DNA of 64,000 bases from an uncultured Candidatus Entotheonella sp. (GTDB lineage: Bacteria; Tectomicrobia; Entotheonellia; Entotheonellales; Entotheonellaceae): NCBI GenBank assembly GCA_958295825.1, contig OY282375.1, positions 665,489 through 729,488 of the forward strand, written 5' to 3'. The position numbers were made by a program, and so were the translations under genes. Below the pieces are notes generated by a model. The model was not told the DNA's origin, did no database searches, and worked only from the letters and a program-made list of their open reading frames with translations. Of the stretch, positions 12,067 to 64,000 are shown piece by piece; position 1 is the first letter of the stretch; each line of letters opens with the position of its first letter.

Positions 12067-12080
12067 ACGCAGCCCAGGCA

Positions 12081-42122: not shown

Positions 42123-42341
42123 ATGGCTGAAGAATTTGTCCGCAAGGAGCACTTCGACGAGTCCGCCGTTCGTATAGATGAGCGTTTTCTTGGCATTGAA
42201 AAGCGGATGGAACAGGGTTTTGCCCACGCGGAAAAGGCACGGGAACAGAGTTTTGTTCATCTCAACCAGCGGCTCGATAGCATTGAACGCCGCCCACCGC
42301 ACCCGCACTTCCGCGACGCTACCAATCCGAGCGACTCTTGA
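42123..42341 (+). CDS. Small hypothetical protein
   Basis: 72-aa ORF with a GGAAAGGGGAACA-ATG RBS. Charged and helical, no recognisable family. Confidence 0.3.
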   Translation: MAEEFVRKEHFDESAVRIDERFLGIEKRMEQGFAHAEKAREQSFVHLNQRLDSIERRPPHPHFRDATNPSDS

Positions 42342-42350
42342 GGGAATCCC

Positions 42351-44355
42351 CATGCGAGCCCTGGAAATGCGCGCCGTAGCCCGGTGCATCGTCCGTTTCA
42401 GCCGTGACCGCAAGGCGTGTCTGTACTACACCGCCTGCGTCGTCTTGCTTGTCGCCGCGGCGGGGCTGCGCTTCCATGATCTGTCCGAGCACCAGCTACG
42501 GTTCGACGAAGCGGTAACGGCCAACAATTCGAGAGGCACACTCTCGGAAGTCGTCTCAGGCACTCGTTGCTGCAACTCCAATCCGATCCTGTACCCCTTG
42601 GTCCTGTACGCGGTGCAGAAAGTCGAGAGCACGATCTTCAGCGTCCGAATTGTGCCGGCGACGGCCAGCGTTCTGACCATCGCCTTGATGCTCTTCTTTC
42701 TGCCGCGCCTCGGCGTCGCTCGGGGCGCCGCGTTTCTGGCGGCCCTGCTCGCCACGCTTTCCGTTGAGGCAATCCGGCACGCCCAGGATGTGCGGGAATA
42801 TTCCATTGACGCGCTGGTGGCCCTGTTCATGGTGGCGGGGCTGCTACGGTATCTGCGAGACGGAAGGACCGCCCTGCTCTGCGTCTCTCTGTTCCTCGCG
42901 CCGCTTCTCCAGTACGGCTTGGTCCTGTTCGGCGCCGCCGTCATTGGCGCCGCCCTCGTCGCTCCACGCGTCTCCGGACAGGGAAGGTGGAGTGCCTATC
43001 CTGGCCGGATTGGTGGCTGGCTGAAAAGGCGCCTGGACTTGGCCGCGCCCTGTGGGTTCTTCCTGGCCGGAGGTGCCTTGAGTTACTTGGCGACCTTGCG
43101 CCATCAATGGCAGGAAGGGGGGTTCGCCTCGGGTAGTTATTTATCGGGGTATTACTATCAGGAAAAATTCGATGCGTACTCGATTTTCGAGTTTTCGATT
43201 GACGGTATTTGGAGCTTGTTGAAGTATCATTTGCCGGAGGTTGTTGCGATAGCGGCGCTTCCCGCATTCGCGATCCTCCTGATCGCGGCGTTCCTCCGGC
43301 AATTTCAATACGGCGCCATCGCAGTTTCATTCTCGTTTTGCATTGCGGTTTCCGTCGGTGCTGCCGTGCTGGGCATATATCCGCTTGGGGATATTAGGCA
43401 AAGCATCTATCTGGGTCCGATTATTTTCCTGGCGGTCGGTTTGGCGTTTCATTCAGGAGCTGACGCGCTGGCGTCGACCGCACGGCAAGCATGGCTGGGG
43501 CCCCTATTGATCGTGTTATCCGCAAGCGCAGTAGTGCTTTCCGGAGTAGATGCCATACGGCAGATAGATTTGTACCGGCCCCATGACAAAGGCGAGGAGA
43601 TTGTTTCCGTACTACAGGAGCGCACACAAGAAGATGATGTTTTATGCTATCACAGAGACAATCGAGAACTTATAGAATTCCATCTAAAACCGGATCGAGG
43701 AAGGTTAGTATTTGATGGATTAGTTTTTGACGGAAAGGTAGGTCGTGGGTATGGAGAAGAACTATGTTTACAAGAAATGATCGACGAGATCACTCCGTGG
43801 ATTGGAAGAAGCAGACTCTGGTTGGTCTCCAAATACCCTCTGCCCTTTCTGGGAATGCTGCAGACGATGGCCGCGCACGTTCTGGTTGAGCACGTCGTTT
43901 CTGATGGAACACCCAATCTCTATCTGATTGAAGATGCGAAATCCTTGATTCAAATCGCCACCGCCACTGATATGTTTCGAGACATAAAGCCAATCCTACC
44001 TCGCGAGCCGTCAATCCGCTCCACCTTCGACATCTATCTCCGCGGGAACACACTGGTCTATTTCAAGGAACCGTGCGGCGCAGAGTACATGCAGGCAACC
44101 TTCTTCCTGCACTACCAGCCCGTTCACGGGGACGACCTGCCGGCTGATCGCCAACAATATGGCTTCGATGGCGTCCACTTCAACATCTTCGGCTCCAACA
44201 TCTTCAACATCCAAGAGATGCCAGTCGAGCAATGCGTCGCTTCGCAAGAGTTGCCCGACTACGCCATCGCCCTCATCCGCACCGGCCAGTTCTCGTCTAA
44301 TGAGGACGGCTCCTACACAAACATCTGGGAAGGCGAGATCCGCTTCGATGAGTAG
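42351..44355 (+). CDS. GT-C-fold glycosyltransferase (ArnT/PMT family 39-like) membrane protein with a large C-terminal soluble domain
   Basis: N-terminal ~430 aa carry more than 10 TM helices with an ArnT/PMT-like loop arrangement. The ~230-aa C-terminal domain is unassigned. The start is taken at the ATG at 42351 (MRALEMRAVARC...). Confidence 0.6.
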
Positions 44356-45285: not shown

Positions 45286-45391
45286 GTCGCCAACTCTCTC
45301 GAAACTTCAGCTTCTTTACCCCCATGCTCCCTGCAAACAGCGTCATTTGGTTGGCCGTGTGCCTGCTACGGAATCACGGAAGGCCAGAGCC

Positions 45392-48300: not shown

Positions 48301-48547
48301 GCCGGGCCGGGTGTGGATCAACCGCGACCAGTATTTCGAGGGCGTTACTCCAGCCACCTGGACCTTCGCCATCGGCGGCTACCGCCCGGCCGAGAAGTGG
48401 CTGAAAGACCGCAAGAACCGCGTCCTGTCGTTCGAGGACATCATTCACTACCGCAGAATCTGCGCGGCGCTCGCTGCAACGCCGGACATCATGGCCCGAA
48501 TCGACGAAACGATTATCGTGTGTGGCGGCTGGCCGCTGACCTGCTGA
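45392..48547 (+). CDS. MmeI-family single-chain restriction-modification enzyme, copy 1 (type IIL/IIG: N-terminal PD-ExK nuclease, gamma-class N6-adenine MTase, C-terminal TRD)
   Basis: N-terminal nuclease-like ...PDFIVERHGVPTGHIECKNV. MTase motifs GVYYTPEPVVSYIV, LDPAAGTGTFL and LGNPPYSG. C-terminal region ...FHYVYAILHSPEYRRRYTDFLKSDFPRIPL...GGYRPAEKWLKDRK... as in MmeI-family TRD/C-terminal modules. GGAAGG RBS before the ATG at 45392. Confidence 0.8.
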   Translation: MTLDALRTYCNQITRIHATGQATEHSYRPAFASLVEALGGGQVRALNEPSHVACGAPDFIVERHGVPTGHIECKNVSVHLDDVENNAQLRRYRDGLPNLILTNYLEFRWYTAGQRRKIACLGRFDGQNKMAFDRVGAEQVSALFDGFFAADLPMIDNPRELAERIAAKARLLRDGVERIFAQENPSGPLHDLLTAYRQVLIQNLKPTDFADLQAQTATYGLFAARCQHEPSRPFTRKEAIFAKTTPFLRDVFGRIAGPDIDPRIAWIVDDLARLLDRADMAAILTDFGRRTRQEDPVVHFYEDFLAAYDPKLREVRGVYYTPEPVVSYIVRSVDHLLRDRFGLADGLADTATVTVERPDGEQETSPRVLILDPAAGTGTFLREAIATIRATIENKGLGGVWPGYVRDHLLPRLFGFELLMAPYAICHLKLALEIGGAEADFTMPAGERLRVFLTNTLEEPHERSGALFAHEIVREAAGADDVKRKKPVMVVLGNPPYSGHSANKGAWIAELIDDYKRGFPELQKPAQAKWLSDDYVKFTRFAQWRIERSGEGVLGFVTNHGWLDNPTFRGMRHSLMETFDEIHVLDLHGNAKKKERAPDGGRDDNVFDIQQGVAIGLFVKRSDTAARPARVFHADVWGEREAGPDGGKYGWLAANGVETTEWTELAPKPPLYLFIQRDEELLGEYEAGWSIPAIFSPNGDPAPGIVTTHDQFAISWTPEEAAAKVERLLATTSEDEARSQWRLCSQNQWEYGRAKRELADGSWRERIEPILYRPFDVRTTVFDGNVAVHRRERVMRHMLNGKNLALIIPKQHRDEFGTLAAQFISAHKAVAAYDINYHFPLYVYPSTYRREPNIDQDFIKTLSAATGLAFVPDGTGDLETTFGPEAVFHYVYAILHSPEYRRRYTDFLKSDFPRIPLTKDCELFTKLATLGKQLAALHLMETEGENSPAFPVAGSNRMEKARYAPPNDGLPGRVWINRDQYFEGVTPATWTFAIGGYRPAEKWLKDRKNRVLSFEDIIHYRRICAALAATPDIMARIDETIIVCGGWPLTC

Positions 48548-48961
48548 CAGGAAAGGTACATGCAGACAATACCCAAACCCGATAATAACAGTTGATTCAA
48601 TTACAAGGCACAACAACTCGGTGACACCTACTGGTTATGCGTCGTTTGGGACCCTCTGGACCGACCCGACCCCGTTCCCCTGATGGTCCGGAACCCGGCC
48701 CAGGCATCTTGACTACGCGAAGAAAGAAGTCGTAGCCGCTCGCTACTATGACCTGCCGGCCGATGCCATCGAGCAGGCCGCCCGCGACCAACAGGGGTTG
48801 AGGTAAACCGAAGAAGCCAGACTTGCGCAGACCAACACCACAACATCTGTTGACATAATCTTCAGGTTTTCTTATTTTCGTGCGATAAAGAACACTGTTA
48901 TTACCCTGTCGGAAAATATCGCGAGGCCGAGTATGCGACTGCAAATACCGGGGACTCCCTT

Positions 48962-49147
48962 ATGAAGAACGTCACGATCACCCTGCCGGAGAACCTTATC
49001 GGCTGGCTAAGGAACTAGGCAACGGAGAACAAACGCAGCGTGTCCAAGTGGGTGGCCGAGTTGCTCGAAAAGATACGGCGCCAAGAAGATGAGTACGAGA
49101 CCGCAATGCAACGTGCCCTATCGATCGCGCCTCGCAAAATGGAATAG
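48962..49147 (+). pseudogene. Ribbon-helix-helix (CopG/antitoxin-like) gene interrupted by an in-frame TAG at 49016-49018
   Basis: MKNVTITLPENLIGWLRN*ATENKRSVSKWVAELLEKIRRQEDEYETAMQRAL... is a typical RHH antitoxin pattern (MKNVTI.LPE.L...L...A.....S.S..V.ELL) with a stop at codon 19. Confidence 0.45.
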
Positions 49148-49193
49148 ATCGACAGCCCTAAGCCATCTCACGAAGAGAGGAAAAGCACAACAA

Positions 49194-49883
49194 ATGAAAG
49201 CGTCAACCGAATGGATAAACATTGCTTACCAAGCTAAATTCGACGTCCCCTTGTTTGACTTGGCAACACGATCACCTGAATTTCAACAACACATATACAA
49301 GGCAATCCGGTCAGACTATCCATATGCGTTAAGCTTGGCGGACATGCACCTTTTCACAAGCGGAATTCAAGCGGAAACCGAGTTACAAATCAAGATGTTC
49401 CACGGCAACGTTTCAGTCAACTTAACTCGTGAACGTTTAGCGATAGACTTCTCCGACATAAACTGGAAGACGGACCTCAACACATGCAAGACATGTATTG
49501 ACCTGGTATGGAAAAGCCTTTTTCAGACTTGGACCGATATGAATATGAGTTTGCTCACAGATTTAATCAGTACCTCGCTTTCCCTGCGTGCTGATGGCGC
49601 GGCACGTCATCTTGAGGAGGTTGTACCGACTAATGAATTCTACGTTGATCCGACTCAGCTCGATGCCACCGAAAGACATCCGGCCGTTGTCATCGAGCTC
49701 GGCAATTCGAAAAATGGGTGGCGAGCAATGGCCAATGCAACCGCGCAAACTCAGGACAATTTGTTCGTATTTTGCCAGACTCGATACAATGCTTCCAGCA
49801 TACCGCTTACCGATCGCGTCGCCAAACAGCTTGATCTGGTTAATTTGATCCTTCATGGAATCAAGGTGGAACTGGAACTATGA
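49194..49883 (+). CDS. Hypothetical protein (229 aa), AT-rich, translationally coupled (ATGA) to the downstream DUF2384 antitoxin-like gene
   Basis: MKASTEWINIAYQAKFDVPLFDLATRSPEFQQHIYKAIRSDYPYALSLADMHLF... GAAGAGAGGAAAAG RBS. No recognisable family. Confidence 0.5.
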   Translation: MKASTEWINIAYQAKFDVPLFDLATRSPEFQQHIYKAIRSDYPYALSLADMHLFTSGIQAETELQIKMFHGNVSVNLTRERLAIDFSDINWKTDLNTCKTCIDLVWKSLFQTWTDMNMSLLTDLISTSLSLRADGAARHLEEVVPTNEFYVDPTQLDATERHPAVVIELGNSKNGWRAMANATAQTQDNLFVFCQTRYNASSIPLTDRVAKQLDLVNLILHGIKVELEL

Positions 49884-50485
49884 CCACTGCATCTCAAGGA
49901 ATAAATGCCGGACTCGAACATCGCAATCGGAATCCTGGCTTGGATTCCAAAGTTTACAACACTCCACAACCGCCAGATTACATGCTTTACACGTTTCGGG
50001 ACTGGTTTTGGGATCAGCCTCGATCCGGCGACAACTTGGCGGCAACTCACTCATCTCGCACTCCGCTCAGACAGAAGAAATCCGCCTCGTCTTTTCCTCC
50101 CACATCGGTTATGCACCCTTTGCACGAAAAAAGGTTAATAAGCGGTCCCATCCAATTCATTTTAAAGCTGCTCGACTACTGGCATTTGAACAGAGACGAC
50201 GCAGTCTCCCTCCTCGGATTTAATTCCACAGACAGCAATTCTGTAAAGGACATTTTAAACGGCATGACATCTCTCGACAGAGACGTGCGTGACCGAATCG
50301 CTCACCTTTTTCACATCTGGACAACTCTGTCATCGCTATTCCAGGACAGGGACGTCGAAAACGACTGGCTGCGCGAACCTCACGCACTACTTGACGAGCA
50401 GTCGCCCCTGAATCTCCTGATGGACGGCGACATGGAAAACCTGCTGTTGGTAAAGGAATACGTCGATGCCGCAGCTGGGCACTAA
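49880..50485 (+). CDS. ParS/MbcA/Xre-type antitoxin-like protein with C-terminal DUF2384 (RES-toxin-binding) domain
   Basis: C-terminal ...RDVRDRIAHLFHIWTTLSSLFQDRDVENDWLREPHALLDEQSPLNLLMDGDMENLLLVKEYVDAAA fits DUF2384. The N-terminal ~90 aa are atypical, with no obvious HTH. Confidence 0.6.
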   Translation: MTTASQGINAGLEHRNRNPGLDSKVYNTPQPPDYMLYTFRDWFWDQPRSGDNLAATHSSRTPLRQKKSASSFPPTSVMHPLHEKRLISGPIQFILKLLDYWHLNRDDAVSLLGFNSTDSNSVKDILNGMTSLDRDVRDRIAHLFHIWTTLSSLFQDRDVENDWLREPHALLDEQSPLNLLMDGDMENLLLVKEYVDAAAGH

Positions 50486-51095
50486 CCAGCTCGACGCCAT
50501 ACCGACTCAGCAATCCGAATACCAAGTCTTTCGGTTAGCCAGCATCGCTGACCACGTCGATTCTCTCAATAAACTTGGGCTTGATGCCCAAAGCAACCGG
50601 GAAATGAGAGAACTACTCCAGAATACAGGCTATTGGCAGTCTCCGAACGAACTATTCCTGATTCCATTTCGACAAAGGCAACGTTGGGCAACACGTTTTT
50701 CGGACCGATCGTTTCCAGTACTTTACTGCTCGCTTGAACCTGACACGGCCAAGACGGAAGTTCAACACTGGTTCGCGAAATTCAGCGGCCGGCCCAGCTG
50801 TCAGCGTTCCGCTTATTACCGGCAGCTATCCTGCTCGTTCGCAGGCACCACAAAGGATCTCCGACCGAAGCTGGCGGCTTGGCCGGACTTGATACATCCC
50901 GATGACTACGCTTTCTGTAACCAGCTCGGCGCTGAAGCGATTCAACTGAAGTTGGACGGTTTGCTGACACCTTCAGCGAGACGACCCAACGGCACCAATT
51001 TGCCGATTTTCAGGAGCCAAGCTATCGCTAGCGCCAAGGTTGACAAAGACGATCTGATCACAATTACGGCCGGTCCCGTTGATGTTGCCGAATGA
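50466..51095 (+). CDS. RES-domain toxin (ParT/MbcT-like NAD+-targeting)
   Basis: ...RFSDRSFPVLYCSLEPDTAKTEV... (R and E of the RES motif) and ...LLTPSARRPNGTNLPIF (the S motif). Overlaps the antitoxin stop by 20 nt. Confidence 0.7.
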   Translation: MPQLGTNQLDAIPTQQSEYQVFRLASIADHVDSLNKLGLDAQSNREMRELLQNTGYWQSPNELFLIPFRQRQRWATRFSDRSFPVLYCSLEPDTAKTEVQHWFAKFSGRPSCQRSAYYRQLSCSFAGTTKDLRPKLAAWPDLIHPDDYAFCNQLGAEAIQLKLDGLLTPSARRPNGTNLPIFRSQAIASAKVDKDDLITITAGPVDVAE

Positions 51096-51133
51096 GCAGA
51101 TTGAAGAATTTGAATTTGAAATGGTAATACACA

Positions 51134-51616
51134 ATGATGCTGCCCCCCCCTGACCGTCGCTTGATCGAAGACTACCTGCCACTGGACGAACTCAACGCCA
51201 TCGCCGGGAAGGAGAAGAAGCATCCCAAGCACCCGGTGGCGCTCGTTCACTATTGGCCGGCGTGCCGACCGACGACCGCTTCTCGGGCCGCTATCTATGC
51301 CGAGTTGGTTCCCGCGCCGAACTCCGATGGCGAACGCACCGAATCCACATCGTTCGTCACCAATCTCGCCGCGTTCAAGCCCGATCCCAATATCCTCAGC
51401 AAGGTAAGAGAGCGAATCAGGACCCAACACGGCAGGCGAGCGCCCAATGACGTCGCCAAAACGATCAGCAAGTATTTACTCGACGTCGAAAACCCTCTTT
51501 CAAAACGCCTTATCCACGCTTTAACCAACCAAATTCAACCTTCAGATGCCGTAGGCGGCAAAAAAAGGAGATCGACCCATGGGCTATTGCATAGACCGCG
51601 TCAACAGGAGACCTAG
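51134..51616 (+). pseudogene. N-terminal fragment of a DUF1156/COG1743 adenine-specific DNA methylase (component of DUF1156-DUF499 defence loci)
   Basis: MMLPPPDRRLIEDYLPLDELNAIAGKEKKHPKHPVALVHYWPACRP... matches the DUF1156 N-terminus (IEDYLP...E.S...reK........lH.WWARRP). Only 160 codons remain and the rest is unrelated. Confidence 0.45.
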
Positions 51617-52123
51617 ACGCTCACTCCACTGACGCCGTTTATGTCTTCTTCGTAGAGCGTGCGTTCCTCCTCGCCTGACCTGCCGGCTTCTCACTACTTT
51701 TCGCATTCGATCCACTCCTCGACCGACTTCCGCGTTACGAAATCAGCTATACCAACCGGATGCGTTTGTCGCATCAATTTGATTCTTCAAACTGGTGGGA
51801 TTGGTCATACGCGCGGCGGTTCATGCGAACAATTGCCAATCGTTCTAATTGAGTCTGCACCCAATGCTGCCACCTGCCACGTCCTACAGGGTAATGCGTT
51901 CGCCCTGGTTCCCACGATAGGCCAAGCCCAACAGCGCCCGGTAGTGAGCAGCGCGCTTCAAGCCCCACCATGCCAGCCGTGGCGATACGATGGGGCCGCC
52001 CACCGCGCCCGGTGGTAGGTCAACAATCAGGCGTAATTCGTCGTCTTCATCCTCGGGAACTTGTGCCATGGTGACAACCTGCCGCCAGCCGCTCTTGCGG
52101 TAGTGATCTAGTTTGAAAAGGGA

Positions 52124-52477
52124 ATGGAAAAACACCCAGTACAAGTCAAGGAAAAATGCTACATTGAAATTGTACAGGTGGGCATCTTGACGCTCTATGT
52201 CGAGCGCCAGGACCTCAACATGCGGATGGGAATGCGCCGCTTCACTCGCCTCACGAACGCTTTCAGCAAGAAGATGGCCAACCACATGGCGATGGTGGCT
52301 CTGTACACGGCGTTCCATAACTTCTGCCGCCTTCACACCTCGTTGCGCATGACACCAGCAATGGCGGCTGGTTTGAGCATGGAACTTCACGATACGGAGT
52401 GGACCGCTGGACTGATCGACGCCCGAACTCAGAAGCCGAATCGTCCCAAAACTTACCGCAAGCGAATTTCAAACTAG
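52124..52477 (+). pseudogene. C-terminal fragment of a DDE transposase (family uncertain, possibly IS1595-like)
   Basis: ...MRMGMRRFTRLTNAFSKKMANHMAMVALYTAFHNFCRLHTSLRMTPAMAAGL..., a conserved transposase C-terminal block. The stop codon is overlapped by the IS427-like copy 2 left end. Confidence 0.4.
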
Positions 52478-53179
52478 AAGCAGTTTCATAACTTAATTTG
52501 CCATGAGGCTTCCTTTTGGTATGCAATCAATGGCTGAAAGGAGGCCTGACATGAACCGCCATCAGAGTGAACTAAGCGATGAGCAGTGGGAAAAAATCGC
52601 TCCCTTCCTGCCCAAACCCCAAGCCTCGCCTTGGGGTGGACCCAAACCAATCCCCAATCGCCCTTGCTTCGAGGGCATCTTGTGGGTCCTTCGCAGCGGC
52701 GCCCGCTGCAAAGACCTGCCAGCGTCCTATCCTTCCCCCAGCACCTGTTGGCGTCGTCTGTGCCTCTGGGAGGAACAAGAGGTGTGGCTTAAGGCATGGC
52801 GCGCCTTTCTGGCGCAACTTGACCGCCAAGGACAGCTTGATTGGGCCGAAACCTTTGCTGACGGCAGCTTTGCCCCGGCCAAAAAAGGGGGCCTTGCGTC
52901 GGCCCTACCAAGAAGGGCAAAGGTACGAAGTGGATGGTGGTGGCAGACGGCCAAGGTGTTCCTCTGGGAAACCTCCTGGAATCGGCGTCCGCAGCGGAAG
53001 TGACCTTGATCGAGCGGGCCTTGACACAAGTGTCGGTGCCGCGTCGTGGCCGCGGTCGGCCTCGCCAAAAGCCCGCGCGCCTCATATCGCGTGCATGCTG
53101 ATAACGCTGAATAAGCTTCTCAATGGCTTCTAACTCATTTGCTTGTAACTATCATCAGGTAGTTATGAAACAGCCTCTA
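52475..53179 (+). mobile_element. IS427-like (IS5 family) copy 2 with an about 230-bp internal deletion
   Basis: Same terminal inverted repeats and the same orfA (52530-53003) as copy 1. The sequence jumps from the equivalent of about 34850 to about 35080 of copy 1, removing most of orfB. Flanked by TA. Confidence 0.8.
52530..53003 (+). CDS. IS427-like transposase OrfA, copy 2
   Basis: MAERRPDMNRHQSELSDEQWEKIAPFLPKPQ... is near-identical to 34295-34768. The slippery AAAAAAG run is retained. Confidence 0.75.
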   Translation: MAERRPDMNRHQSELSDEQWEKIAPFLPKPQASPWGGPKPIPNRPCFEGILWVLRSGARCKDLPASYPSPSTCWRRLCLWEEQEVWLKAWRAFLAQLDRQGQLDWAETFADGSFAPAKKGGLASALPRRAKVRSGWWWQTAKVFLWETSWNRRPQRK

Positions 53180-53463
53180 AGCATGACCCCCTTGACGCGA
53201 ATAATACCCAGCGACTTGCTGATTCACTCAAGCAGCAGATCAGACCTGTAAATGCAGTACTTATAATTTCAGGCATGTACGTGCATTACAGGGATTGGAT
53301 TCAGTATGAAATTGAAGTAGCTCGGAGTTACAACAAACCGATCATCGGGATTGAACCCTGGGGTTCTCAGCGTGTTCCTACTGAAGTTCAGTCGGCCGCA
53401 ATAGCAATGGTGGGGTGGCGCACAAATTCAATTGTCACCGCGGTCAGGAGATACGCCATATGA
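53180..53463 (+). pseudogene. TIR-like (DUF1863/MTH538-type, ThsB-like) gene, 5' end truncated by the IS427-like insertion
   Basis: Open frame from the IS end: ...LDANNTQRLADSLKQQIRPVNAVLIISGMYVHYRDWIQYEIEVARSYNKPIIGIEPWGSQRVPTEVQSAAIAMVGW... matches the C-terminal half of DUF1863 TIR-like domains (...S.W...EI..A....KPII.V......P..L....). Confidence 0.5.
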
Positions 53464-53942
53464 AACCTGAAGAATACGGCGAAAAGTACCGGGATCATCT
53501 CCTGGAGCAGTACAAGCTCTTCGTCGAGATGGCGGACAGGGTGAGCCAGCGCAGAGACCAGTCAAACAGATTTTACGTAACCCTCGTATCCGCTATCGCC
53601 GGGCTTCTGATGGTGCTGGCAAGATTTGGTACGTCTGTCAACGGTATCTGGCCTGTCGTGTTTCTGATAAGCGGATTGCTCGGGGCGACCCTATCGTTCA
53701 TCTGGTTTCTCAACATCAAGTCCTACCGGACGCTAAATACGGCAAAGTTCGAGATCATCAACGATTTGGAGCGGCGATTGCCTTATCAGGGATACTCAAA
53801 GGAATGGGAACTGTTGCGTCCCGCAATCGGCTCTCCCAAATACCTTCAGCTCACAAGAATCGAACAGCTTGTACCCGCGGTCATCATTCTGCTTTTTCTT
53901 GGGATAGCAGGTTACGGCGCGTGTTTGCTGGTACGCGGTTAA
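53460..53942 (+). CDS. 2-TM membrane protein, SLATT-like candidate effector coupled (ATGA overlap) to the TIR-like gene
   Basis: MKPEEYGEKYRDHLLEQYKLFVEMADRVSQRRDQSNRFYVTLVSAIAGLLMVL...WPVVFLISGLLGATLSFIWFL...: N-terminal helix, two TM helices and a C-terminal helical tail, as in SLATT-domain partners of TIR/SMODS genes. Confidence 0.45.
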   Translation: MKPEEYGEKYRDHLLEQYKLFVEMADRVSQRRDQSNRFYVTLVSAIAGLLMVLARFGTSVNGIWPVVFLISGLLGATLSFIWFLNIKSYRTLNTAKFEIINDLERRLPYQGYSKEWELLRPAIGSPKYLQLTRIEQLVPAVIILLFLGIAGYGACLLVRG

Positions 53943-53948
53943 TTAACC

Positions 53949-55553
53949 TTGTCAACTTGGGGAGAACCAATGCCCTACAAACGGATGGACGCCATGTCCC
54001 GCCAACAGATAACCGACATGCAGAGGGCTTATCGTGCCGAAAAGGGGATTTCTCTCCCCGCCGTTGACAAGGCCGCAACCATTCTTCGCACGCTCCGTTT
54101 CATTGTGCTTTTCTTCTTCCCCTTCATCCTTCTCGCCGGCTGCAGCGGCGGCGGGAAGGCGGAATTTCCATTTCCGGCCGTTGAGCATTTTAATGGCGGG
54201 GAGAATGGGGATGCCGCGGTGTCTGGAACGGGGTTGGATCATCGTGATTATGCCAAGTCCGGGCACAGGAGCCCGAATTACGACTGGCACCAGTCATTTT
54301 CCCATCTTCATTTTTGGCGCGATACGGTGCATCTTGGCGGCGATCTCGAGCCGAGGGAGAACTTGCGGCTTATTTTCGAGCCTCGTCATAACGGAGGGGG
54401 ATTTACGATCTCGATGGGCGCGTCGAGGGACGGCGTGGGCGTGGACCGCCTTGATAATTACAGGAATGATCTGGAGACGAAGAACGGCACGGTCTCTTCT
54501 TATCTGTCTGACGATGGATTTCATTCGTTCCGGGTTCAGCCGAGCATTCGGTTCGGGCGAGGGTTCGAGAATTCCGATTCGGAATTGTATTGGGTCCTGG
54601 TGGAAAGCGTGCGGCTGCTGAACGACGCGTTGCCGCCGGAGTTTCAGATCAAGTGGGGAGACGATTTCCTGAGCGGGTCGCTCGTTTACGAGGGGGACAT
54701 CGTGGTGGCGGCTCGCCCGCCTTCTGTTGTTAGGAATGTCTGTTCGGAAAACGCGGTGGCTTGCGCGATCAGCAACATTTCTGTCGGCGGCCATACCCGG
54801 GATGCCACTCTTTTTTTTCCTGATGATTTCGACGCTTCGGATTTGGTGTTTGCTCGCACCGTGGTTGTTCATGAGCTGTTGCACGCGCTCGGCATTCAGG
54901 GGCACGTGGATAGCATCGAGTTTCCCGATTCCATCATGGGAGCGTCGGGGGATTTCTTTCCCAACCCGGGGTTCGTCATGGGTCGCATCGACCGGGAGGT
55001 TCTGCAGATTCTGTATATGTCCAAGGATACGGCGAGGTATAACGACTGGAGCGAGTGGTCGGATACGACCTTGCATCTCGTCGGGCGGTCGGAAGACGAT
55101 TTCGTTCATTTCGGCGTGGCGTTGTTCAACGGGCTTCCCCAGCCGTGGGCGAGGGGCAGGTATCCCGATACGTCGCTGGCGGGCAATAGGCTGTTGACGG
55201 GCCGCGCTTCCTGGGAGGGCTCGCTGCTCGGCTTTTCCGGGCCGTCGCCGATCATGGGCGACGTCAGGCTCGATGTAACGATGAGTCGGCTGTCCGGCCT
55301 TCAGGACTTGAGGTTCCGGGATATTTTCTTTCTTAATCGGTACGACAGCGACGGGCCTGATCGCTGGTTTCCGGCGAGGAACCTTAACTATAGGGTTGCT
55401 ATTACTGAGGGGGGGAACAGCTTTTCGCATTGGGATGATGCCGAGTCCGACGAGGGCATCATCTCCGGCGTTTTTCTCGGCCCTAGGCACGAGGGCATGG
55501 CGGGAACCATCAAGCGGACAGACCTTGTCGGCGCGTTTGGCGGAACACGATGA
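53949..55553 (+). CDS. Surface lipoprotein: metzincin-like zinc metalloprotease domain (HExxHxxGxxH) fused to a TbpB/fHbp-like C-terminal beta-barrel
   Basis: Lipobox FILLAGCSGGG. VVVHELLHALGIQGHVDS matches HExxHxxGxxH. C-terminus ...GIISGVFLGPRHEGMAGTIKRTDLVGAFGGTR parallels the 25486-26460 C-terminus. The true start is probably downstream of 53949. Confidence 0.6.
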   Translation: MSTWGEPMPYKRMDAMSRQQITDMQRAYRAEKGISLPAVDKAATILRTLRFIVLFFFPFILLAGCSGGGKAEFPFPAVEHFNGGENGDAAVSGTGLDHRDYAKSGHRSPNYDWHQSFSHLHFWRDTVHLGGDLEPRENLRLIFEPRHNGGGFTISMGASRDGVGVDRLDNYRNDLETKNGTVSSYLSDDGFHSFRVQPSIRFGRGFENSDSELYWVLVESVRLLNDALPPEFQIKWGDDFLSGSLVYEGDIVVAARPPSVVRNVCSENAVACAISNISVGGHTRDATLFFPDDFDASDLVFARTVVVHELLHALGIQGHVDSIEFPDSIMGASGDFFPNPGFVMGRIDREVLQILYMSKDTARYNDWSEWSDTTLHLVGRSEDDFVHFGVALFNGLPQPWARGRYPDTSLAGNRLLTGRASWEGSLLGFSGPSPIMGDVRLDVTMSRLSGLQDLRFRDIFFLNRYDSDGPDRWFPARNLNYRVAITEGGNSFSHWDDAESDEGIISGVFLGPRHEGMAGTIKRTDLVGAFGGTR

Positions 55554-55800
55554 GCAGAAAGGGAAGGGGTTTGATTTGGTTGCGGGTTGGTGATTGACGG
55601 TGTTTGTTGTCGTCGGTTTTCTACTGTCGTCGGTCGGCTTCGCGGAGGTGAAGCCGACTGGGGTTGGTACGAGACGCGCTTTGTCGATTCCCTCGGCGTG
55701 CTGGTAGGGCTCAATGTGAACATGGTGGAGGCCGCCACGCCGAAACCCGATTTTCCCGTGCCGAGGGTTTTCTATGTCGGTCTGGGTTTTCCCTCCGGCG

Positions 55801-55890
55801 AATAGTCCTGCAGCACGACAAAAATGTAAAAATTTCAGCCCGCCTGAGCACCTTGCTTCCGGTCGATCAGCGACCGACTTTTTGTGCAAA
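55801..55890. repeat. Dispersed repeat copy, inverted relative to 31221-31335
   Basis: tcctgcagcacgacaaaaatgtaaaaatttcagcccgcctgagcaccttgcttccggtcgatcagcgaccgactttttgtgcaaagccg. Directly abuts the IS5-family element. Confidence 0.7.
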
Positions 55891-55899
55891 GCCGATGAA

Positions 55900-57100
55900 G
55901 ACATAAGGGCATCTCTAATAATACACATCTCCCACTTGGTTTAGAATTACTGAACCACGTTAACCAACAAGATGGGAGGAGTTGAGCATGGGTCAGATGG
56001 GCTTTTTCGATGTCGAGAATCGCTACGCCGCTTTGGACGCCAGGAATGACCCCCTGGTGAAGATCAATGCCGTTGTGCCGTGGGAAGCATTCCGCAGCCG
56101 CCTGGAGAGCGTCTGGCGTAAGCCGCCCGACGAGCGCAAGTCGAACGCGGGGCGCCAACCTTGGGACGCCATCGTCATGTTCAAAGCCATCCTTCTGTGC
56201 GCCCTCTACAACCTGTCGGATGACCAAGGCGAGTACCAGATGCGCGACCGCCTGTCCTTCGTGCGCTTCCTGGGCTTGGCCCTTGAAGACAAGGTGCCGG
56301 ACGCCAAGACCGTGTGGCTCTACCGTGAGCAGTTGTCACAGGCTGGCCTCATGGAGGCCTTGTTCGAGGATGTCGACGCTTACCTGAAAAGCCAAGGCTA
56401 CCGAGCGATGGGCGGCCAGATCATTGATGCTTCGATTGTGGCGGTTCCCATTCAACGCAATCGTCGTGACGAAAACGAGCACGTCAAGCGCGGTGAGCTA
56501 CCCGAGGCCTGGACTGACAAGCCGGCCAAGCGTCGGCAAAAGGACAGGGATGCGCGTTGGACAAAGAAGCACGGCAAGAGCCACTACGGCTACAAGAACC
56601 ACGTCACCGTTGACCGTCGGCACAAGCTGATCCGGCGTTATCGGGTGACGACGGCGGCGGTCCACGACAGCCAGGTCCTTGAGGAGTTGTTGACGTCGGA
56701 CAACACGGCACGCGGCGTCTGGGCGGATAGCGCCTACCGGTCGAAAGACATTGAAGCAAAGGTGAAAGCCAAGGGCCTGACAAGTCGGATACACCGCAAG
56801 GCTTCTCGTAACCGTCCGTTGCATGCTTGGGAGAAAGCGGGCAACCGGCGTCGTTGCCGGTTTCGAGCACGGGTAGAGCATGTCTTCGGCGCGCAGCAAA
56901 ACGACATGGGCGGGACGCTGGTTCGCAGTATCGGACTTGTACGAGCGAGGGCGCGGATAGGTCTCAAGAACCTCGCTTACAACATGCGGCGTCTGGTTCA
57001 ATTGCAACGTCTGGCGAGGGTAGGTTAAGCGCCAAGGGTGCGGAAGGGTACGCCGGAGTCCCCATTGACAGGCGAATCCCCCCTGAACAGCCGAGTTCAT
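55900..57100 (+). mobile_element. IS5-family insertion sequence (single DDE transposase); ends not delimited
   Basis: Contains the transposase gene at 55988-57028. Terminal inverted repeats could not be identified by eye, so the boundaries are approximate. Confidence 0.55.
55988..57028 (+). CDS. IS5-family DDE transposase (DDE_Tnp_1)
   Basis: ...RQPWDAIVMFKAILLCALYNLSDDQGEYQMRDRLSFVRFLGL...GQIIDASIV...WTKKHGKSHYGYKNHVTVDRRHKLIRRYRVTTAAVHDSQ...ADSAYRS..., with an IS5-type D, D, E spacing. GGGAGGAG RBS. Confidence 0.85.
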   Translation: MGQMGFFDVENRYAALDARNDPLVKINAVVPWEAFRSRLESVWRKPPDERKSNAGRQPWDAIVMFKAILLCALYNLSDDQGEYQMRDRLSFVRFLGLALEDKVPDAKTVWLYREQLSQAGLMEALFEDVDAYLKSQGYRAMGGQIIDASIVAVPIQRNRRDENEHVKRGELPEAWTDKPAKRRQKDRDARWTKKHGKSHYGYKNHVTVDRRHKLIRRYRVTTAAVHDSQVLEELLTSDNTARGVWADSAYRSKDIEAKVKAKGLTSRIHRKASRNRPLHAWEKAGNRRRCRFRARVEHVFGAQQNDMGGTLVRSIGLVRARARIGLKNLAYNMRRLVQLQRLARVG

Positions 57101-57224
57101 TTTCCGCCACGTGCCAGCGAATTGCCAACCCTGTCATCTTTGACCGTTCGCGGGCATTTTTCGAGGTGCCCATAAGTAAGCGTTCAGCAACATCACACAG
57201 CCGCCAGGGGCGTCATGCCAACGC

Positions 57225-57452
57225 CTACGACGACCGCTTACCCTGCCACAAACAAGAAAAGGGGGCGGTCCTTGTTAAAGGCGCCCCCTTGACTCCGGCC
57301 CTGCTCCAGCGCACGAAGCGGTTGTAGAGGGTCTTGTAGGGTCCGTAACAAGCGGGCGCGTCGCGCCACCTTAACCCATAGCGGATGACGTGGATGATAC
57401 CGCTGATGACCTTTCGGTCATCGACGCGCGGGACGCCGCTGGAGTGGTTCAT
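57225..57452 (-). pseudogene. N-terminal (DUF4096) fragment of another IS5-family transposase
   Basis: ...DDRKVISGIIHVIRYGLRWRDAPACYGPYKTLYNRFVRWSRAGV... is the conserved DUF4096 block. Only 75 codons remain. Confidence 0.5.
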
Positions 57453-57720
57453 CGACCGTTACCGAATCACCCGCGACAAGGAAAGCGGCATCGTCAACGA
57501 CCCCAACGGCTGGTTCGACGACCCGCGTGACCTGATCGCGGCGGTCCGCCGGGTCATGCACATCAGCGTGGAGACCGTCCACGTCGTGAAGCACTTGCCG
57601 GAGCCATTTCTGGAACAAACAACACCCTAAACACCTGAATCATCGGCCGCAACGTCGTCATCATCACCAGCAGCCGAGACATCAAACAGTGTCTATTCAA
57701 AAGTTTGGAGGCGAAATCAT

Positions 57721-59346
57721 ATGCCTAATCGTTTCGTATTGGAATTTCCAACGACTGATACAGATAGAAATGCCGAATACACTCTCGAAACAGGAGAAAT
57801 TCTCTTTATCCTAGGAGCAAATGGCTCCGGAAAATCGAGTCTCATTTCCAAGCTATTCAATGATCACAGTCAAGATGCCAAGCGTATCTCCGCAAACCGC
57901 CAGATTTGGTTTCAATCCAATAGAATTGACTTGACCCCGTATGGAAGAAAAGACCTCGAAAACGCCACAAAAAAGTACGATCAGCAGATATACTCCCGGT
58001 ACCAACAACGCCAAGCTGCCGAACGGACAATTGCCGCAATCTATGACTTGATCGACGCAGAAACCATGATGAATAAAGAAATCGTCGATTTGATGCGACG
58101 CAAAGAGATCAAAGCGGCTGAAAACAGAGCAGAATCTCCTTCACCGATTCAATCCATAAATGAACTCCTGCAACTCTCGAACCTTCCGATCAAAATCAGC
58201 GTAGAAGAACGTCAGAAGATTATGGCCAGCCGAAATGACAGTGCTACCTACAGCATTGCCGAACTTTCGGAAGGAGAGCGTAACGCGCTCCTCATCGCGG
58301 CCGAAATTCTTACCGCCGAACCAGGTACTCTGATTTTAATTGACGAACCAGAGCGGCATTTGCACAGGTCGATTATCTCCCCACTGCTCTCCTCACTGTT
58401 TGAGAAACGAAAAGACTGTTCTTTTATTATTTCAACACATGAAGTGATGCTGCCTGTAAATAATCCGACGGCGCAAACATTGTTAGTGCGATCCTGTAAA
58501 TATGAGGATTCCCAAGCCAAATCCTGGACGGGTGACTTTTTGTGTCCAAAAGCCCAAATTGATGACGAACTGAAGCGCGACATTCTTGGCGCACGCAAGA
58601 AAATCATTTTTGTCGAAGGCACCGAAGGTAGGAGTCTTGACTCGCCCCTCTACAGCCTGTTGTTCCCTCAAGTGTCAGTCATCGCCAAGTCAGGCTGTCG
58701 CGAAGTTGAACAAACCGTGCGGAGCTTGAGGGAAGCCTCGGAAATGCACTGGCTACGCGTTTGGGGCATTGTCGATAATGACCGACGTTCGCAAGAAGAC
58801 ATCAAACGCCTCCAAAGCCTTGGCGTGCACGCTCTTTCCTATTACTCAGTCGAGTCGATCTATTTTCATCCTGAGATGATCCGACGTGTGGCCAATCGTA
58901 AAAGTAAGGAACTCACTGAAGAAGACCCCACTGAACTGTACGACCAAGCTGTCAAGAAGGCGCTTCGCGCAATTGAAAAGCAGAAAACCCATCTGATCCT
59001 CAAGGCTGTTGAGAAATTGGCTCGACAAGAAATCTCTGCTCAATTCCCAACGAAAAAAGATGTCCAAAATATGCAGCCAGTGAATATCAAGGTAGATTTG
59101 GAAAGATTACGAGCCGCCGAAGAGGAAAATTTCGATGCTTTAGTTCAAGCTCGTAACCTTGAAAAGCTGCTTCAGCGGTATCCAGTCCGAGAGAGCGGGG
59201 CTTTAGGGGAAATTGCAAAAGAGATTGGACTTCCAAAAAAATATGAGTCGGCTGTTCAGAAGCTGCTTCGGGAAGATGCTGATGCTCTGGAATACTTCCG
59301 TGGCTTATTCAGTGAATTGCTCACCGAAATCAATTCTGAAAGTTAA
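57721..59346 (+). CDS. OLD-family / PARIS-like (AriA-AriB fused) ABC ATPase plus TOPRIM (DUF4435-like) nuclease
   Basis: Walker A ILGANGSGKSSLISKLF, ABC signature IAELSEGERNALLIAAEIL, Walker B GTLILIDEPERHLH, H-loop SFIISTHEV. TOPRIM/DUF4435-like RKKIIFVEGTEGRSLDSPLYSLLFPQ and the DxD motif in WGIVDNDRRS. AT-rich. Confidence 0.65.
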   Translation: MPNRFVLEFPTTDTDRNAEYTLETGEILFILGANGSGKSSLISKLFNDHSQDAKRISANRQIWFQSNRIDLTPYGRKDLENATKKYDQQIYSRYQQRQAAERTIAAIYDLIDAETMMNKEIVDLMRRKEIKAAENRAESPSPIQSINELLQLSNLPIKISVEERQKIMASRNDSATYSIAELSEGERNALLIAAEILTAEPGTLILIDEPERHLHRSIISPLLSSLFEKRKDCSFIISTHEVMLPVNNPTAQTLLVRSCKYEDSQAKSWTGDFLCPKAQIDDELKRDILGARKKIIFVEGTEGRSLDSPLYSLLFPQVSVIAKSGCREVEQTVRSLREASEMHWLRVWGIVDNDRRSQEDIKRLQSLGVHALSYYSVESIYFHPEMIRRVANRKSKELTEEDPTELYDQAVKKALRAIEKQKTHLILKAVEKLARQEISAQFPTKKDVQNMQPVNIKVDLERLRAAEEENFDALVQARNLEKLLQRYPVRESGALGEIAKEIGLPKKYESAVQKLLREDADALEYFRGLFSELLTEINSES

Positions 59347-59544
59347 AGAAACACAAAAAACATGATCTTGACACACCACAACCAGACGCCAATAAAGCGT
59401 CAAACGATGAGCAATGGCTTTCAGAACACCTTGAATCACATCCGGTCCATCACTACTTCGGAAGCCAGGAAAGACCGGATCTTCGAACGCCTGATGAAGA
59501 TGTACTTCGTTCAAGACCCGCTTTACCAAGGTCATTTCTCCCAT

Positions 59545-62500
59545 GTTCCGAACCTACTGCAATCAGATAACCCGAATCCAAGCCACCGGACAGGCCACCG
59601 AGCATAGTTATCGTCCGGCTTTCGCGTCCCTGGTCGAAGCACTGGGCGGCGGCCAGGTTCGGGCGCTCAACGAGCCGTCGCACGTCGCCTGCGGCGCCCC
59701 CGACTTCATCGTTGAGCGCCACGGCGCGCCCACGGGTCATGTCGAATGCAAGAACGTCAGCGTCCATCTGGACGACGTCGAAAACAATGCGCAACTCCGC
59801 CGCTACCGCGACGGCCTGCCCAATCTGATCCTCACCAACTATCTGGAATTTCGCTGGTATACGGCAGGCCAGCGACGCGAGACCGCCTGCCTCGGACGCT
59901 TTGACGGCCAAAGCAAAATGGCCTTCGACAGGGTAGGCGCCGAACAAGTCGGCGCCTTGTTCGACGGCTTCTTTGCCGCCGACCTGCCGATGATCGACAA
60001 CCCGCGCGAGCTCGCCGAGCGTATCGCCGCCAAGGCGCGGCTGCTGCGTGACAGCGTGGAGCGCATTTTCGCGCAGGAAAACCCATCCGGGCCGCTGCAT
60101 GACCTGTTGACGGCCTACCGGCAAGTTCTGATTCAAAACCTCAAGCCCGCCGATTTCGCCGACCTGCAGGCGCAGACCGCTACCTACGGCCTGTTCGCGG
60201 CACGCTGCCAACACGAGCCGTCGAGGCCGTTCACCCGAAAAGAAGCGATCTTCGCAAAGACAACGCCATTCCTGCGCGACGTCTTTGGCCGCATCGCCGG
60301 CCCCGACATCGACCCGCGCATCGCCTGGATCGTGGACGATCTGGCGCGCCTCCTGGACCGGGCGGACATGGCGGCGATCCTGACCGATTTCGGCCGGCGC
60401 ACCCGGCAGGAAGACCCGGTGGTTCATTTCTACGAAGACTTCCTGGCCGCCTACGACCCGAAACTGCGCGAAGTGCGCGGCGTCTACTACACGCCCGAGC
60501 CGGTCGTCTCCTACATCGTGCGCAGCGTGGACCACCTGCTACGCGACCGCTTCGGCCTTGCCGACGGCCTCGCCGACACGGCAACGGTTACAGTCGAGAG
60601 ACCAGACGGCGAACAGGAGACAGGCCCGCGCGTGCTGATTCTCGACCCTGCGGCAGGCACCGGCACGTTCCTGCGCGAGGCGATTGCCACAATCCGCGCC
60701 ACCATCGAGAACAAGGGGCTCGGCGGCGTCTGGCCAGACTACGTGCGGGACCATTTGCTGCCGCGCCTGTTCGGGTTCGAGTTGCTGATGGCGCCCTACG
60801 CCATTTGCCATCTGAAGCTGGCGCTGGAGATTGGCGGCGCGGAGGCGGATTTCACCATGCCGGCGGGCGAGCGGCTGCGGGTTTTTCTCACCAACACGCT
60901 GGAGGAACCGCACGAGCGGAGCGGCGCGCTGTTCGCCCACGAGATCGTACGTGAAGCGGCCGGCGCCGATGACGTGAAGCGCAAGAAGCCGGTGATGGTG
61001 GTGCTCGGCAACCCGCCGTATTCCGGTCATTCCGCCAACAAGGGCGCGTGGATCGCGGGGCTGCTTCGTGGACGGGATGGAGAAGAGAAAACAGGCAGCT
61101 ATTTCGAGGTAGATGGGCAACCGCTTGGTGAGATGAATCCAAAATGGTTGAACGACGACTACGTCAAATTCACCCGCTTCGCCCAATGGCGGATCGAGCG
61201 CAGCGGCGAAGGCGTGCTCGGCTTCGTCACCAATCACGGCTGGCTGGACAACCCGACCTTTCGCGGCATGCGCCACAGCCTGATGGAAACCTTCGACGAG
61301 ATTCACGTGCTCGATCTGCACGGCAACGCCAAGAAGAAAGAACGCGCGCCGGACGGGGGCAGGGACGACAACGTGTTCGACATTCAGCAAGGCGTCGCCA
61401 TCGGCTTGTTCGTCAAGCGGTCGGATACCGCCGCCAGACCGGCGCGGGTGTTTCACGCCGACGTGTGGGGTGAGCGCGAGGCGGGACCCGACGGGGGCAA
61501 ATACGGCTGGCTCGCCGCCAACGACATTGCAGGCACGCGCTGGACGGAACTTTTCCCGAAGCCGCCTTTTTATTTGTTCGTGCCCCGGAACGAAGCGCTT
61601 GCAGAAGAATACGAGAGCGGCTGGAAACTGACGGACGTGTTCCCCGTCCATTCGGTTGGTATCGTCACCGCCCGCGATGAGTTGGCAATCCAGTGGACTG
61701 CCGACGACATGCGGAAGACAGCTGCGGACTTCGTTGCGCGTGGAGTCGAGGAAGCACGAAACATCTACGGACTTGGGGAGGATGTTCGAGACTGGAAGGT
61801 GTCATGGGCACAGGAGGACGTGCGTTTGCATCCCGATTCCGGCAAGTACGTCAAACCTGTCCTGTATCGTCCTTTCGATACCCGGTTCACGTACTACACG
61901 GGTAAATCACGTGGTTTCATCTGTATGCCTCGCCCCAAAGTCATGCGCCACATGTTGAATGGGAAGAATCTGGCACTGATAATTCCCAAGCAGCATAAGG
62001 ATGAATTCGGTACTTTAGCGGCGCAATTCATCAGCGCCCACAAAGCCGTTGCGGCCTACGATATCAATTATCATTTCCCCCTCTACACGTATCCCGAGAG
62101 CAGGGAAGGTCTCATTCCCGACACTCGAGAACCCAATATCGACCAGGACTTCATCAAGCCCCTCTCCGCCGCTACCGGTCTCGCCTTCGTCCCGGACGGC
62201 ACGGGCGATCTCGAAACCACGTTCGGGCCGGAAGCCGCCTTCCATTACGTCTACGCCATCCTCCACAGTCCCGAATACCGCCGCCGGTACGCCGGTTTCC
62301 TGAAGTCGGACTTCCCGCGCATCCCGCTGACCAACGACCGCGAGCTGTTCACGAAACTCGCCGCCCTCGGCAAGCAACTGGCCGCCTTGCATCTCATGGA
62401 AACAGAAGGGGAGAACTCACCGGCCTTTCCCGTCGCCGGTTCCAATCGCATGGAGAAGGCACGGTATGCGCCGCCGAACGACGGTCTGCCGGGCCGGGTG

Positions 62501-62734
62501 TGGATCAACCGCGACCAGTATTTCGAGGGCGTTACTCCGGCCACCTGGACCTTCGCCATCGGCGGCTACCGCCCGGCCGAGAAGTGGCTGAAAGACCGCA
62601 AGGGCCGCGTCCTGTCGTTCGAGGACATCATTCACTACCGCAGCATCTGCGCGGCGCTCGCTGCAACGCCGGATCTCATGGCCCGAATCGACGAAACGAT
62701 TATCGTGTATGGCGGCTGGCCGCTGACCTGCTGA
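59545..62734 (+). CDS. MmeI-family single-chain restriction-modification enzyme, copy 2 (5' junction differs; TRD diverged from copy 1)
   Basis: Near-identical to copy 1 from ...RTYCNQITRI through the MTase domain, including PDFIVERHG...HVECKNV, LDPAAGTGTFL and LGNPPYSG. Blocks about 61060-61140 and about 61520-62100 differ (...DIAGTRWTELFPKPPFYLFVPRNEALAEEYESGWKLTDVFPVHSVGIVTARDELAIQWTADDMRK...). The similarity to copy 1 starts at 59545, with a fortuitous ATG at 59543. Confidence 0.75.
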
Positions 62735-62751
62735 CAGGAAAGGTACAAATC

Positions 62752-64000
62752 CGTGTTGGTTCCCGATCAAAGCCGCACCAACCGAGACCAAGTTCCCGAT
62801 CAAAGTCACATTAACCGAGTCCGCGATGCTCTCTGGCAGCGTTTCGGCGGCGGTGCGTCCGTCATGGTCGGAAGCGGCTTCAGCAAGCATGCCCTGAAAA
62901 CCCGGCCGGATGCGGAAGACCCACCGCTATGGCGTGACGTCATAGAAGGGATGTCATGCAAACTGTATCCGAAAGGAACCAACGGAATACCAGCAACGGA
63001 CGGTCATTTGAGGATCGCCCAAGAGTATGAAACCGCGTTCGGACGGAGTGACCTGCACCACTTCATCCGACAAACGGTCCGGGACGACGACTTCAATCCT
63101 GGGGACGTGCATGCCCGGCTATTGCGACTTCCTTGGCGTGACGTTTTCACCACGAACTGGGACACCCTCTTGGAGCGGGTGCGTACTTCCGTGCCTGAGC
63201 GAGCTTACAGCGTCCTCCGCACAATGGACGAAATTCCGTTGGCAAGCCGACCACGAATCATCAAATTGCACGGTTCTCTGCCCGCCCAGTTTCCGCTTAT
63301 TTGCACGGAGGAGGACTACCGAACGTATCCGACGAAATTCGCTCCATTCATCAACACGGTGCAGCAGGCCATGATGGAAACGGTTTTCTGCCTGATCGGA
63401 TTCTCCGGCGATGATCCAAACTTCCTGCAATGGTCGGGATGGGTTCGCGACAACCTCGGCGGCGCGGCCCCGAAAATATATCTGGCCGGATGGCTGGATT
63501 TGTCCCCCCACCGTCGGCGCATGCTGGAGGGTCGTAACGTGGTTCCTGTGGATCTTGCGCATCATCCCAAGGCCGGTACGTGGCCGGAGCATCTGCGTCA
63601 TGATTACGCAACGGAGTGGATTCTTCATACGCTGGAGCTAGGGTGTCCCTACGATGTCACAAATTGGCCGTTGCCAAATGTTCAAGCACCTCTGAAATTG
63701 CCAACGCATCTTGAACCGGTCGAAGTCGTCACCTTCGACACGCCCCAAGAAGAGTCTTGGCCTGTTTCCTCATCGAATGAGCCCGAGAACAATGAAAAAT
63801 CCGTTCGGAAAGTTCTTGAGGTCTGGACCCACAACCGAAAAGTTTATCCGGGTTGGTTGGCTGTTCCTGCAAATTCACGATTTTCCATAAACATAAATCG
63901 GAACACTGAAAAATGGGAAAAGAAAATTCTGAACGTGCTTCCCGAGTTTTCTCCGGTAGACCGGCTCAACGCCATTCACGAGTTGGTGTGGCGCCGGGAA
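62752..64000 (+). CDS. SIR2-like (SIR2_2/DSR-type) NAD+-dependent domain protein, 5' part of a large defence-associated sirtuin; 3' end beyond the window
   Basis: Open frame from the GTG at 62752 to the window end: ...RFGGGASVMVGSGFSKHAL..., ...DVFTTNWDTLLERV..., ...PRIIKLHGSLP... are hallmark SIR2_2 motifs (GxGxS, TTNYD, iKLHGS). Absent from the ORF track because it has no stop in the window. Confidence 0.7.

Follow-up and report, generated by a model that had tools for sequence, protein, structure and literature searches.

A probable DSR2-type defence sirtuin gene, present as its N-terminal third, in a defence island of an uncultured Candidatus Entotheonella

The DSR2 gene family goes back to Gao et al. 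2020, as cited in bioRxiv 10.1101/2021.12.14.472415. Its member from Bacillus subtilis 29R, a protein of 1005 aa with several structures (PDB 8k98, 8wy8, 8wkx and others), is an NADase that is activated by a phage tail-tube protein and inhibited by DSAD1. Mutation of N133 or H171 lowers its NADase activity (PMC10981675), and this DSR2 alone protects its host against phage (bioRxiv 10.1101/2021.12.14.472415). A comparable NADase core of the SIR2_2 type is found in ThsA of the Thoeris system (PDB 6lhx, 8bto), a SIR2-SLOG protein of ~480 aa whose SLOG sensor serves a signal made by ThsB.

Here, we describe a locus that adds to these known systems. The window, that is, the whole stretch of DNA analysed, comprises 64,000 nt from an uncultured Candidatus Entotheonella sp. 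(contig OY282375.1, positions 665,489 to 729,488). Its final 1.25 kb hold roughly the first third of a DSR2-family gene, which is cut by the window end. The open reading frame that begins with the GTG at 62753 encodes, with high probability, the N-terminal third of a defence sirtuin of the DSR2 type, a single-protein system, with a full length of roughly 1,240 residues. DSR2 systems are already known, and the window copy represents a divergent copy of them within a defence island.

The visible fragment and its fold

The features of the fragment are as follows.

62753..64000, + strand: DSR2-family defence sirtuin gene, first 416 codons, about one third (open frame; PADLOC Dsr2; NCBIfam NF041819)
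62736..62755, + strand: Shine-Dalgarno-like AGGAAAGG at 62736-62743 and GTG start codon at 62753-62755 (sequence reading; start alignment)
62759..62824, + strand: 33-nt in-frame tandem duplication, copies 62759-62791 and 62792-62824 (repeat search, pattern search, alignment)
62870..62884, + strand: GSGFS, glycine-rich loop of the SIR2 Rossmann fold, residues 40-44 (sequence reading)
63143..63547, + strand: Pfam SIR2_2 domain match, residues 131-265 (PF13289, 63.3 bits)
63155..63157, + strand: Asn135 of TTNWD, predicted catalytic asparagine (alignment with B. subtilis DSR2 and ThsA)
63269..63271, + strand: His173 of IKLHGS, predicted catalytic histidine (alignment with B. subtilis DSR2 and ThsA)
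63653..64000, + strand: variable linker (about residues 301-343), followed by the first helices of a helical middle region (structure models)

Translation from the GTG at 62753-62755 yields 416 codons without a stop up to base 64000, in agreement with an earlier note on this DNA that had described an uninterrupted frame of more than 415 codons to the window end. That note had placed the GTG at 62752, one base too early; the frame read from 62752 contains stops throughout. When the DNA is aligned with that of three relatives, GTG 62753 falls on a GTG in locus L002 and on ATG in L003 and L005, and for this reason we regard it as the true start. The Shine-Dalgarno-like AGGAAAGG is located 9 nt ahead of this GTG, within the spacer behind the upstream Type IIG gene. 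The spacer, previously given as 17 nt, measures 18 nt (upstream TGA at 62732-62734).

The N-terminus of the window copy contains a slightly diverged 11-codon tandem duplication. The 14-mer GTTCCCGATCAAAG occurs exactly twice in the window (pattern search), at 62759 and 62792, and 0 of 100 shuffles reproduced the two matches, which excludes chance as their source. The earlier note had correctly seen this 14-mer twice, yet its unit length of 14 nt does not stand: each copy forms the core of a 31-nt unit, the two units share 84% identity at a distance of 33 nt (repeat search), and a DNA alignment gives the window exactly 33 in-frame bases more than L002, L003 and L005. Homologues possess a single copy of the unit that the window DSR2 has twice, and the extra copy adds 11 residues, VPDQSRTNRDQ, ahead of the conserved N-terminal PDQSHINRVRDALW motif. 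The 33-nt duplication went unreported by Tandem Repeats Finder, while the other repeat search, the pattern search and the alignment all displayed it.

All three motifs named in the earlier note were located in the 62753 frame: GSGFS, whose Gly40 and Gly42 are nearly invariant among 25 homologues, TTNWD at residues 133-137 (63149-63163), and IKLHGS at residues 170-175 (63260-63277). In alignments, Asn135, which is invariant in homologues, corresponds to N133 of B. subtilis DSR2, within ITTNYD, and to the Asn of the ThsA motif TTNYD. His173, nearly invariant in homologues, falls on H171 of B. subtilis DSR2, within KVHGD, and on the His of the ThsA motif KMHGD. Judged from these alignments, the predicted active site of the SIR2 NADase type is intact in the fragment.

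Profile searches place the fragment in the same family. SIR2_2 (PF13289) was its sole Pfam match, and the HMM search that the earlier note had proposed as a check passed the threshold for that domain comfortably (63.3 bits against a cut-off of 24.5). The best PADLOC model was Dsr2 (E 4.2e-115, 384 bits over 399 residues), with fragment residues 17-415 running collinear with profile positions 10-375 of 1222, from the N-terminus onwards. Similarly, only NF041819 (Dsr2) was matched in the NCBIfam search, at 393 bits for what is a truncated protein.

Two AlphaFold models were used in fold comparisons, one of the 416-aa fragment (25 sequences, mediocre mean pLDDT of 67) and one of the 720-aa homologue P0001, which is 77% identical to the fragment (69 sequences, mean pLDDT 83). 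For both models, the top 50 Foldseek matches in the PDB were all B. subtilis DSR2. The SIR2 domain alone superposes on that protein with TM 0.74 and rmsd 3.4 Å at 20-21% identity. Superposition of the whole chain was poor (rmsd 17-25 Å), so it is the architecture that appears to be shared with DSR2, and we do not extend the likeness to the geometry of the helical part. Helices begin at about residue 344 in the fragment model, in a region that continues past the window end, and the P0001 model has an all-helical region after the SIR2 domain with pLDDT above 90. The description of a partial SIR2_2, "DSR-like" defence sirtuin in the earlier note is hence well borne out by the Dsr2 profiles, the SIR2_2 match and the fold matches to B. 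subtilis DSR2.

Full-length relatives and a divergent clade

Scanning reference genomes confirmed 163 relatives, and 80 loci, 53-72% identical to the fragment, were kept. By their record titles, these belong mostly to uncultivated Latescibacterota, Binatia, Dehalococcoidia/Chloroflexota, Nitrospirales and Gammaproteobacteria. An intact ORF of 1215-1302 aa is present in 58 of the 80, so that the homologues are unlike the short CobB-like sirtuin that the earlier note had named as a refuting outcome. Full-length relatives are 63-72% identical to the window fragment (54% for L081). Five of them cover positions ~6-1200 of the 1215 in NF041819; in the PADLOC Dsr2 model of 1222 positions, the match extends over 11-1207 for L003 and L011 and, in its best stretch, over 10-938 for L081. 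A protein database search with the fragment returned only matches of at most 720 aa. A shorter or two-gene family was rejected as their explanation, the entries of up to 720 aa being fragmented gene calls and the intact genome ORFs measuring 1215-1302 aa. By comparison with these relatives, the window gene is very probably the start of a gene of ~1,240 codons, with def as the next gene.

Against the two Dsr2 models (PDLC02184 and NF041819; 1,215-1,222 positions), the likeness consists of a collinear N-terminal match that becomes an end-to-end match in full-length relatives, and of an N-terminal SIR2_2 domain followed by a long helical region in one large protein in a defence-island setting, the helical part being known from the relatives. 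There are also differences. The window copy has the extra 11-residue N-terminal duplication, and full-length relatives score 550-607 bits, below the NF041819 equivalog cut-off of 1400. Because of these scores, we consider the relatives a divergent DSR2 clade. On profile evidence, the clade is homologous to the NCBI equivalog Dsr2 set, yet lies outside it. Annotated plasmid homologues (Dsr2, SIR2) are at most 44% identical to the fragment, and at NCBI some of them are named dsr2 and most 'SIR2 family protein'. The clade below the NCBI naming threshold is common in uncultivated lineages of marine type, and without a broader Dsr2 model, annotation would label such genes merely as 'SIR2 family protein'.

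The comparison with B. subtilis DSR2 is closest in fold. It provides the best PDB fold match, the predicted catalytic Asn and His align, and a helical region follows the SIR2 domain in both; in contrast, identity is 17-21%, sequence similarity is confined to the SIR2 domain, and relatives of the window clade are about 250 residues longer. When 30 full-length relatives were combined into a profile, it matched B. subtilis DSR2 over the SIR2 domain only, leaving the C-terminal region of that protein unmatched. Consequently, a tail-tube trigger and a tetramer mechanism would carry over to the clade only by analogy, and, with no sequence similarity there, its C-terminal region is not to be equated with the tail-tube-binding domain of the B. 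subtilis protein. ThsA shares the SIR2_2-type NADase core and the aligned catalytic Asn and His. It differs in carrying its SLOG sensor within a much smaller protein, whereas the window type has a helical, Dsr2-like continuation and ThsB is not adjacent.

If the analogy with B. subtilis DSR2 holds (PMC10981675, PMC11087589, bioRxiv 10.1101/2021.12.14.472415), the sirtuin would be held inactive by autoinhibition as an oligomer until a protein that the phage produces in the infected cell, a tail-tube protein in the case of B. subtilis, is bound by the helical C-terminal part. This binding would turn on the SIR2 domain, leading to hydrolysis of NAD+. With NAD+ exhausted in the infected cell, phage multiplication would fail, amounting to abortive infection. 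By the same analogy, the product probably stops infection through destruction of cell NAD+.

Many members of the clade have been inactivated, disrupted loci making up about 30% of it overall. Both closest relatives of the window copy are among them: L002 has an in-frame TGA, and L083 has frameshifts in a contig with a coverage of 2x. In several relatives, TGA replaces a conserved Trp codon. L002 (site 12161-12163) and L055 share the affected Trp, which belongs to the motif F-W-x-E-R-x-R-V; in L012 it is the Trp of FLxWSGW. Such recurrence could mean that a costly gene has been inactivated repeatedly.

The upstream Type IIG gene and alternative readings

Directly upstream lies the gene that the earlier note had called MmeI-like, an assignment that both Pfam and PADLOC uphold.

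59543..62734, + strand: Type IIG restriction-modification enzyme, MmeI/Type ISP-C type (Pfam Type_ISP_C, 297 bits, and N6_Mtase; PADLOC REase_MTase_IIG, E 8e-276)

When 59000-64000 was scanned for promoters and terminators, no signal rose above chance. Because the scan revealed no terminator-like site between the Type IIG gene and DSR2, the two are probably co-transcribed. Their order recurs in two metagenome contigs. L002, whose priA is 91% identical at the amino acid level, has the order priA, Type IIG, DSR2, def, fmt, rsmB, rpe. L083, with 82% nucleotide identity over window positions 61007-63860, has the order Type IIG, DSR2 (~3.7 kb), def, fmt. The upstream neighbours of DSR2 are heterogeneous across 62 related loci. 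Type_ISP_C is the commonest family (6 loci), followed by Type III-like Mod methylases (3-4) and GmrSD (2); transposases also occur, and HsdR, Avs2, HmaC, a STAND-TPR protein and SMODS were found at one locus each. A Type IIG gene stands directly upstream on the same strand at 8 loci including the window, and a Type III-like Mod gene at about 10. The variety of neighbours, as read from these gene orders, fits an autonomous system housed in defence islands, of which the Type IIG gene would not be a defining part, yet the repeated presence of a restriction-modification gene right upstream leaves functional coupling a small chance.

A quite improbable reading is that the Type IIG enzyme and DSR2 work together as a two-gene module and are not independent neighbours, DSR2 being, for instance, an abortive back-up to which the restriction-modification enzyme is wired. 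Its appeal comes from the short spacer on the same strand without a terminator-like site, the repeated order in L002 and L083, the distant Type IIG genes (~28% identity) that immediately precede DSR2, in the same orientation, in L011, L018, L023, L040, L041 and L052, and the rank of Type_ISP_C as commonest upstream family. Yet restriction-modification genes are the commonest residents of defence islands, and adjacency is expected on that basis; only 6 of the 62 scanned upstream neighbours are Type IIG, several Chloroflexota loci may derive from one ancestral arrangement, and B. subtilis DSR2 is protective by itself (bioRxiv 10.1101/2021.12.14.472415). We speculate that the divergent clade may sense a different phage cue and, in lineages where a restriction-modification gene of Type IIG or Type III-like kind precedes it by 10-30 nt, may act as a coupled second line of defence and not independently, an idea that we rate as improbable. 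A different doubt concerns the state of the gene. DSR2-family by descent, the window copy might be a dead or decaying pseudogene, either disrupted past the window end or impaired by its N-terminal duplication, which we judge unlikely, with a chance large enough to be taken seriously. Disruption by in-frame stops, frameshifts or IS insertions affects about 25 of 82 related loci. In L002, the closest of the well-covered syntenic relatives, the TGA divides the gene into 720 + 488 aa, and several IS fragments are present in the island, as is a DUF1156 gene in truncated form. Set against this, the 416 visible codons are free of stops, every invariant residue of the family is retained (N135 and H173 among them), the duplication is in frame and ahead of a conserved motif, and the start codon and SD-like site are intact.

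Least probable by far is that the gene belongs to another kind of SIR2 protein altogether, be it Thoeris ThsA, DSR1, a SIR2 associated with HerA or pAgo, or a housekeeping deacetylase of the CobB type. The ThsA models were next best in PADLOC (58 and 45 bits), Aga_SIR2 matched weakly (16 bits), TIR genes are present elsewhere in the window, and in a plain PDB sequence search ThsA came marginally ahead of B. subtilis DSR2 (1.7e-8 versus 7.7e-8), both over the SIR2 core only. The ThsA matches in PADLOC are likewise limited to the SIR2 core, against the 384 bits over 399 residues for Dsr2; the relatives are without SLOG, and their ~1,250 aa with a helical C-terminus match end to end to Dsr2 only. 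ThsA was rejected on these grounds and on the identity of the next gene, which in syntenic relatives is def, in place of ThsB, HerA or pAgo. The last point, together with the far better Dsr2 profile, also removes SIR2-HerA and pAgo-associated SIR2. No Dsr1 model was among the PADLOC matches of the fragment at E up to 1, and DSR1 was rejected accordingly. A housekeeping CobB/Sir2 protein has ~250 aa, whereas this ORF already extends over 416 codons and its relatives reach ~1,250 aa, and no match to PF02146 (Pfam SIR2, classical deacetylase) was obtained at E up to 1. By profile and gene order, the sirtuin type is DSR2 specifically, rather than DSR1 or ThsA.

The defence island and the rest of the window

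The DSR2-family gene, well supported and incomplete, adds to a dense defence island. It lies in the lower-GC half of the window, in an island downstream of priA (39383-41890), and GC falls from about 0.65-0.69 in the core to 0.50-0.63 across the defence region. Reading its far side from synteny, the island is bounded by priA and by def and fmt. Two Type IIG enzymes, a fused PARIS-like AriAB and an Xre/RES toxin-antitoxin pair are found there among remnants of IS elements, and two TIR genes and a Type III-like system are located elsewhere in the window. The remaining features of note are listed below.

8179-11208: 1009-aa N6_N4_Mtase protein (Type III Mod-like), second cluster
11257-12066: CAP12/Pycsar-type TIR protein (137 bits)
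12509-15193: ResIII helicase, second cluster; the TIR gene sits between mod and res
32975-34261: TIR_2 gene
49880-50485: Xre/MbcA-type antitoxin, paired with the RES toxin
50466-51095: RES toxin (72 bits)
51134-51616: truncated DUF1156 fragment, which follows the RES pair; IS fragments are also there
53415-53942: 8xMP octameric membrane protein gene
57721-59346: 541-aa protein with AAA_21/ABC ATPase and DUF4435 (PADLOC fused AriAB, PARIS, E 1.6e-64)

The remark in the earlier note that the window is rich in NAD+-targeting effectors is broadly right, those confirmed being one RES, two TIR and the SIR2 gene. Island ORFs at 42178-44355 (725 aa) and at 53949-55553 / 54294-55928 (534 or 544 aa, on opposite strands) had no Pfam match, and the 725-aa ORF had no PADLOC match either; the syntenic contig L002 lacks this gene.

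The two Type IIG paralogues, at 45347-48547 and 59543-62734, have 85% protein identity and are almost identical except in two patches, at about residues 506-535 and 660-860, the likely target-recognition region, which suggests from sequence a duplicated enzyme with swapped specificity. At the DNA level, the repeat pairs 59547-62747 with 45408-48560 (94%) and stops 5 nt short of the DSR2 start. A second DSR2 5′ end was sought behind the first Type IIG copy and was not found, the repeat stopping at 62747/48560. L002 and L083 have a single Type IIG copy, and in the window ~11 kb (48560-59547) with toxin-antitoxin, IS and PARIS-like genes lie between the copies. Directly upstream of the second copy, an 81-codon ORF (59362-59607) without a Pfam match overlaps its first 65 nt. 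By eye, this ORF, a possible marker of the recombination junction in the Type IIG duplication, resembles the N-terminus of another restriction or helicase protein.

A second defence cluster, with mod-like, TIR and res-like genes, occupies 8179-15193 in the high-GC half of the window. In a Rhodothermales MAG (L078), a mod/TIR/res trio with 73%, 51% and 74% identity to the window trio is found beside a DSR2 gene. Further, DSR2 lies downstream of a Type III-like res ... mod cluster in L020, L021, L022, L003, L008 and L013, mostly Latescibacterota/Nitrospirales MAGs, and directly after that cluster in L003 and L020-L022. Where a substantial part of the gene is present, the Mod proteins of those loci are 42-45% identical to the window protein encoded at 8179-11208.
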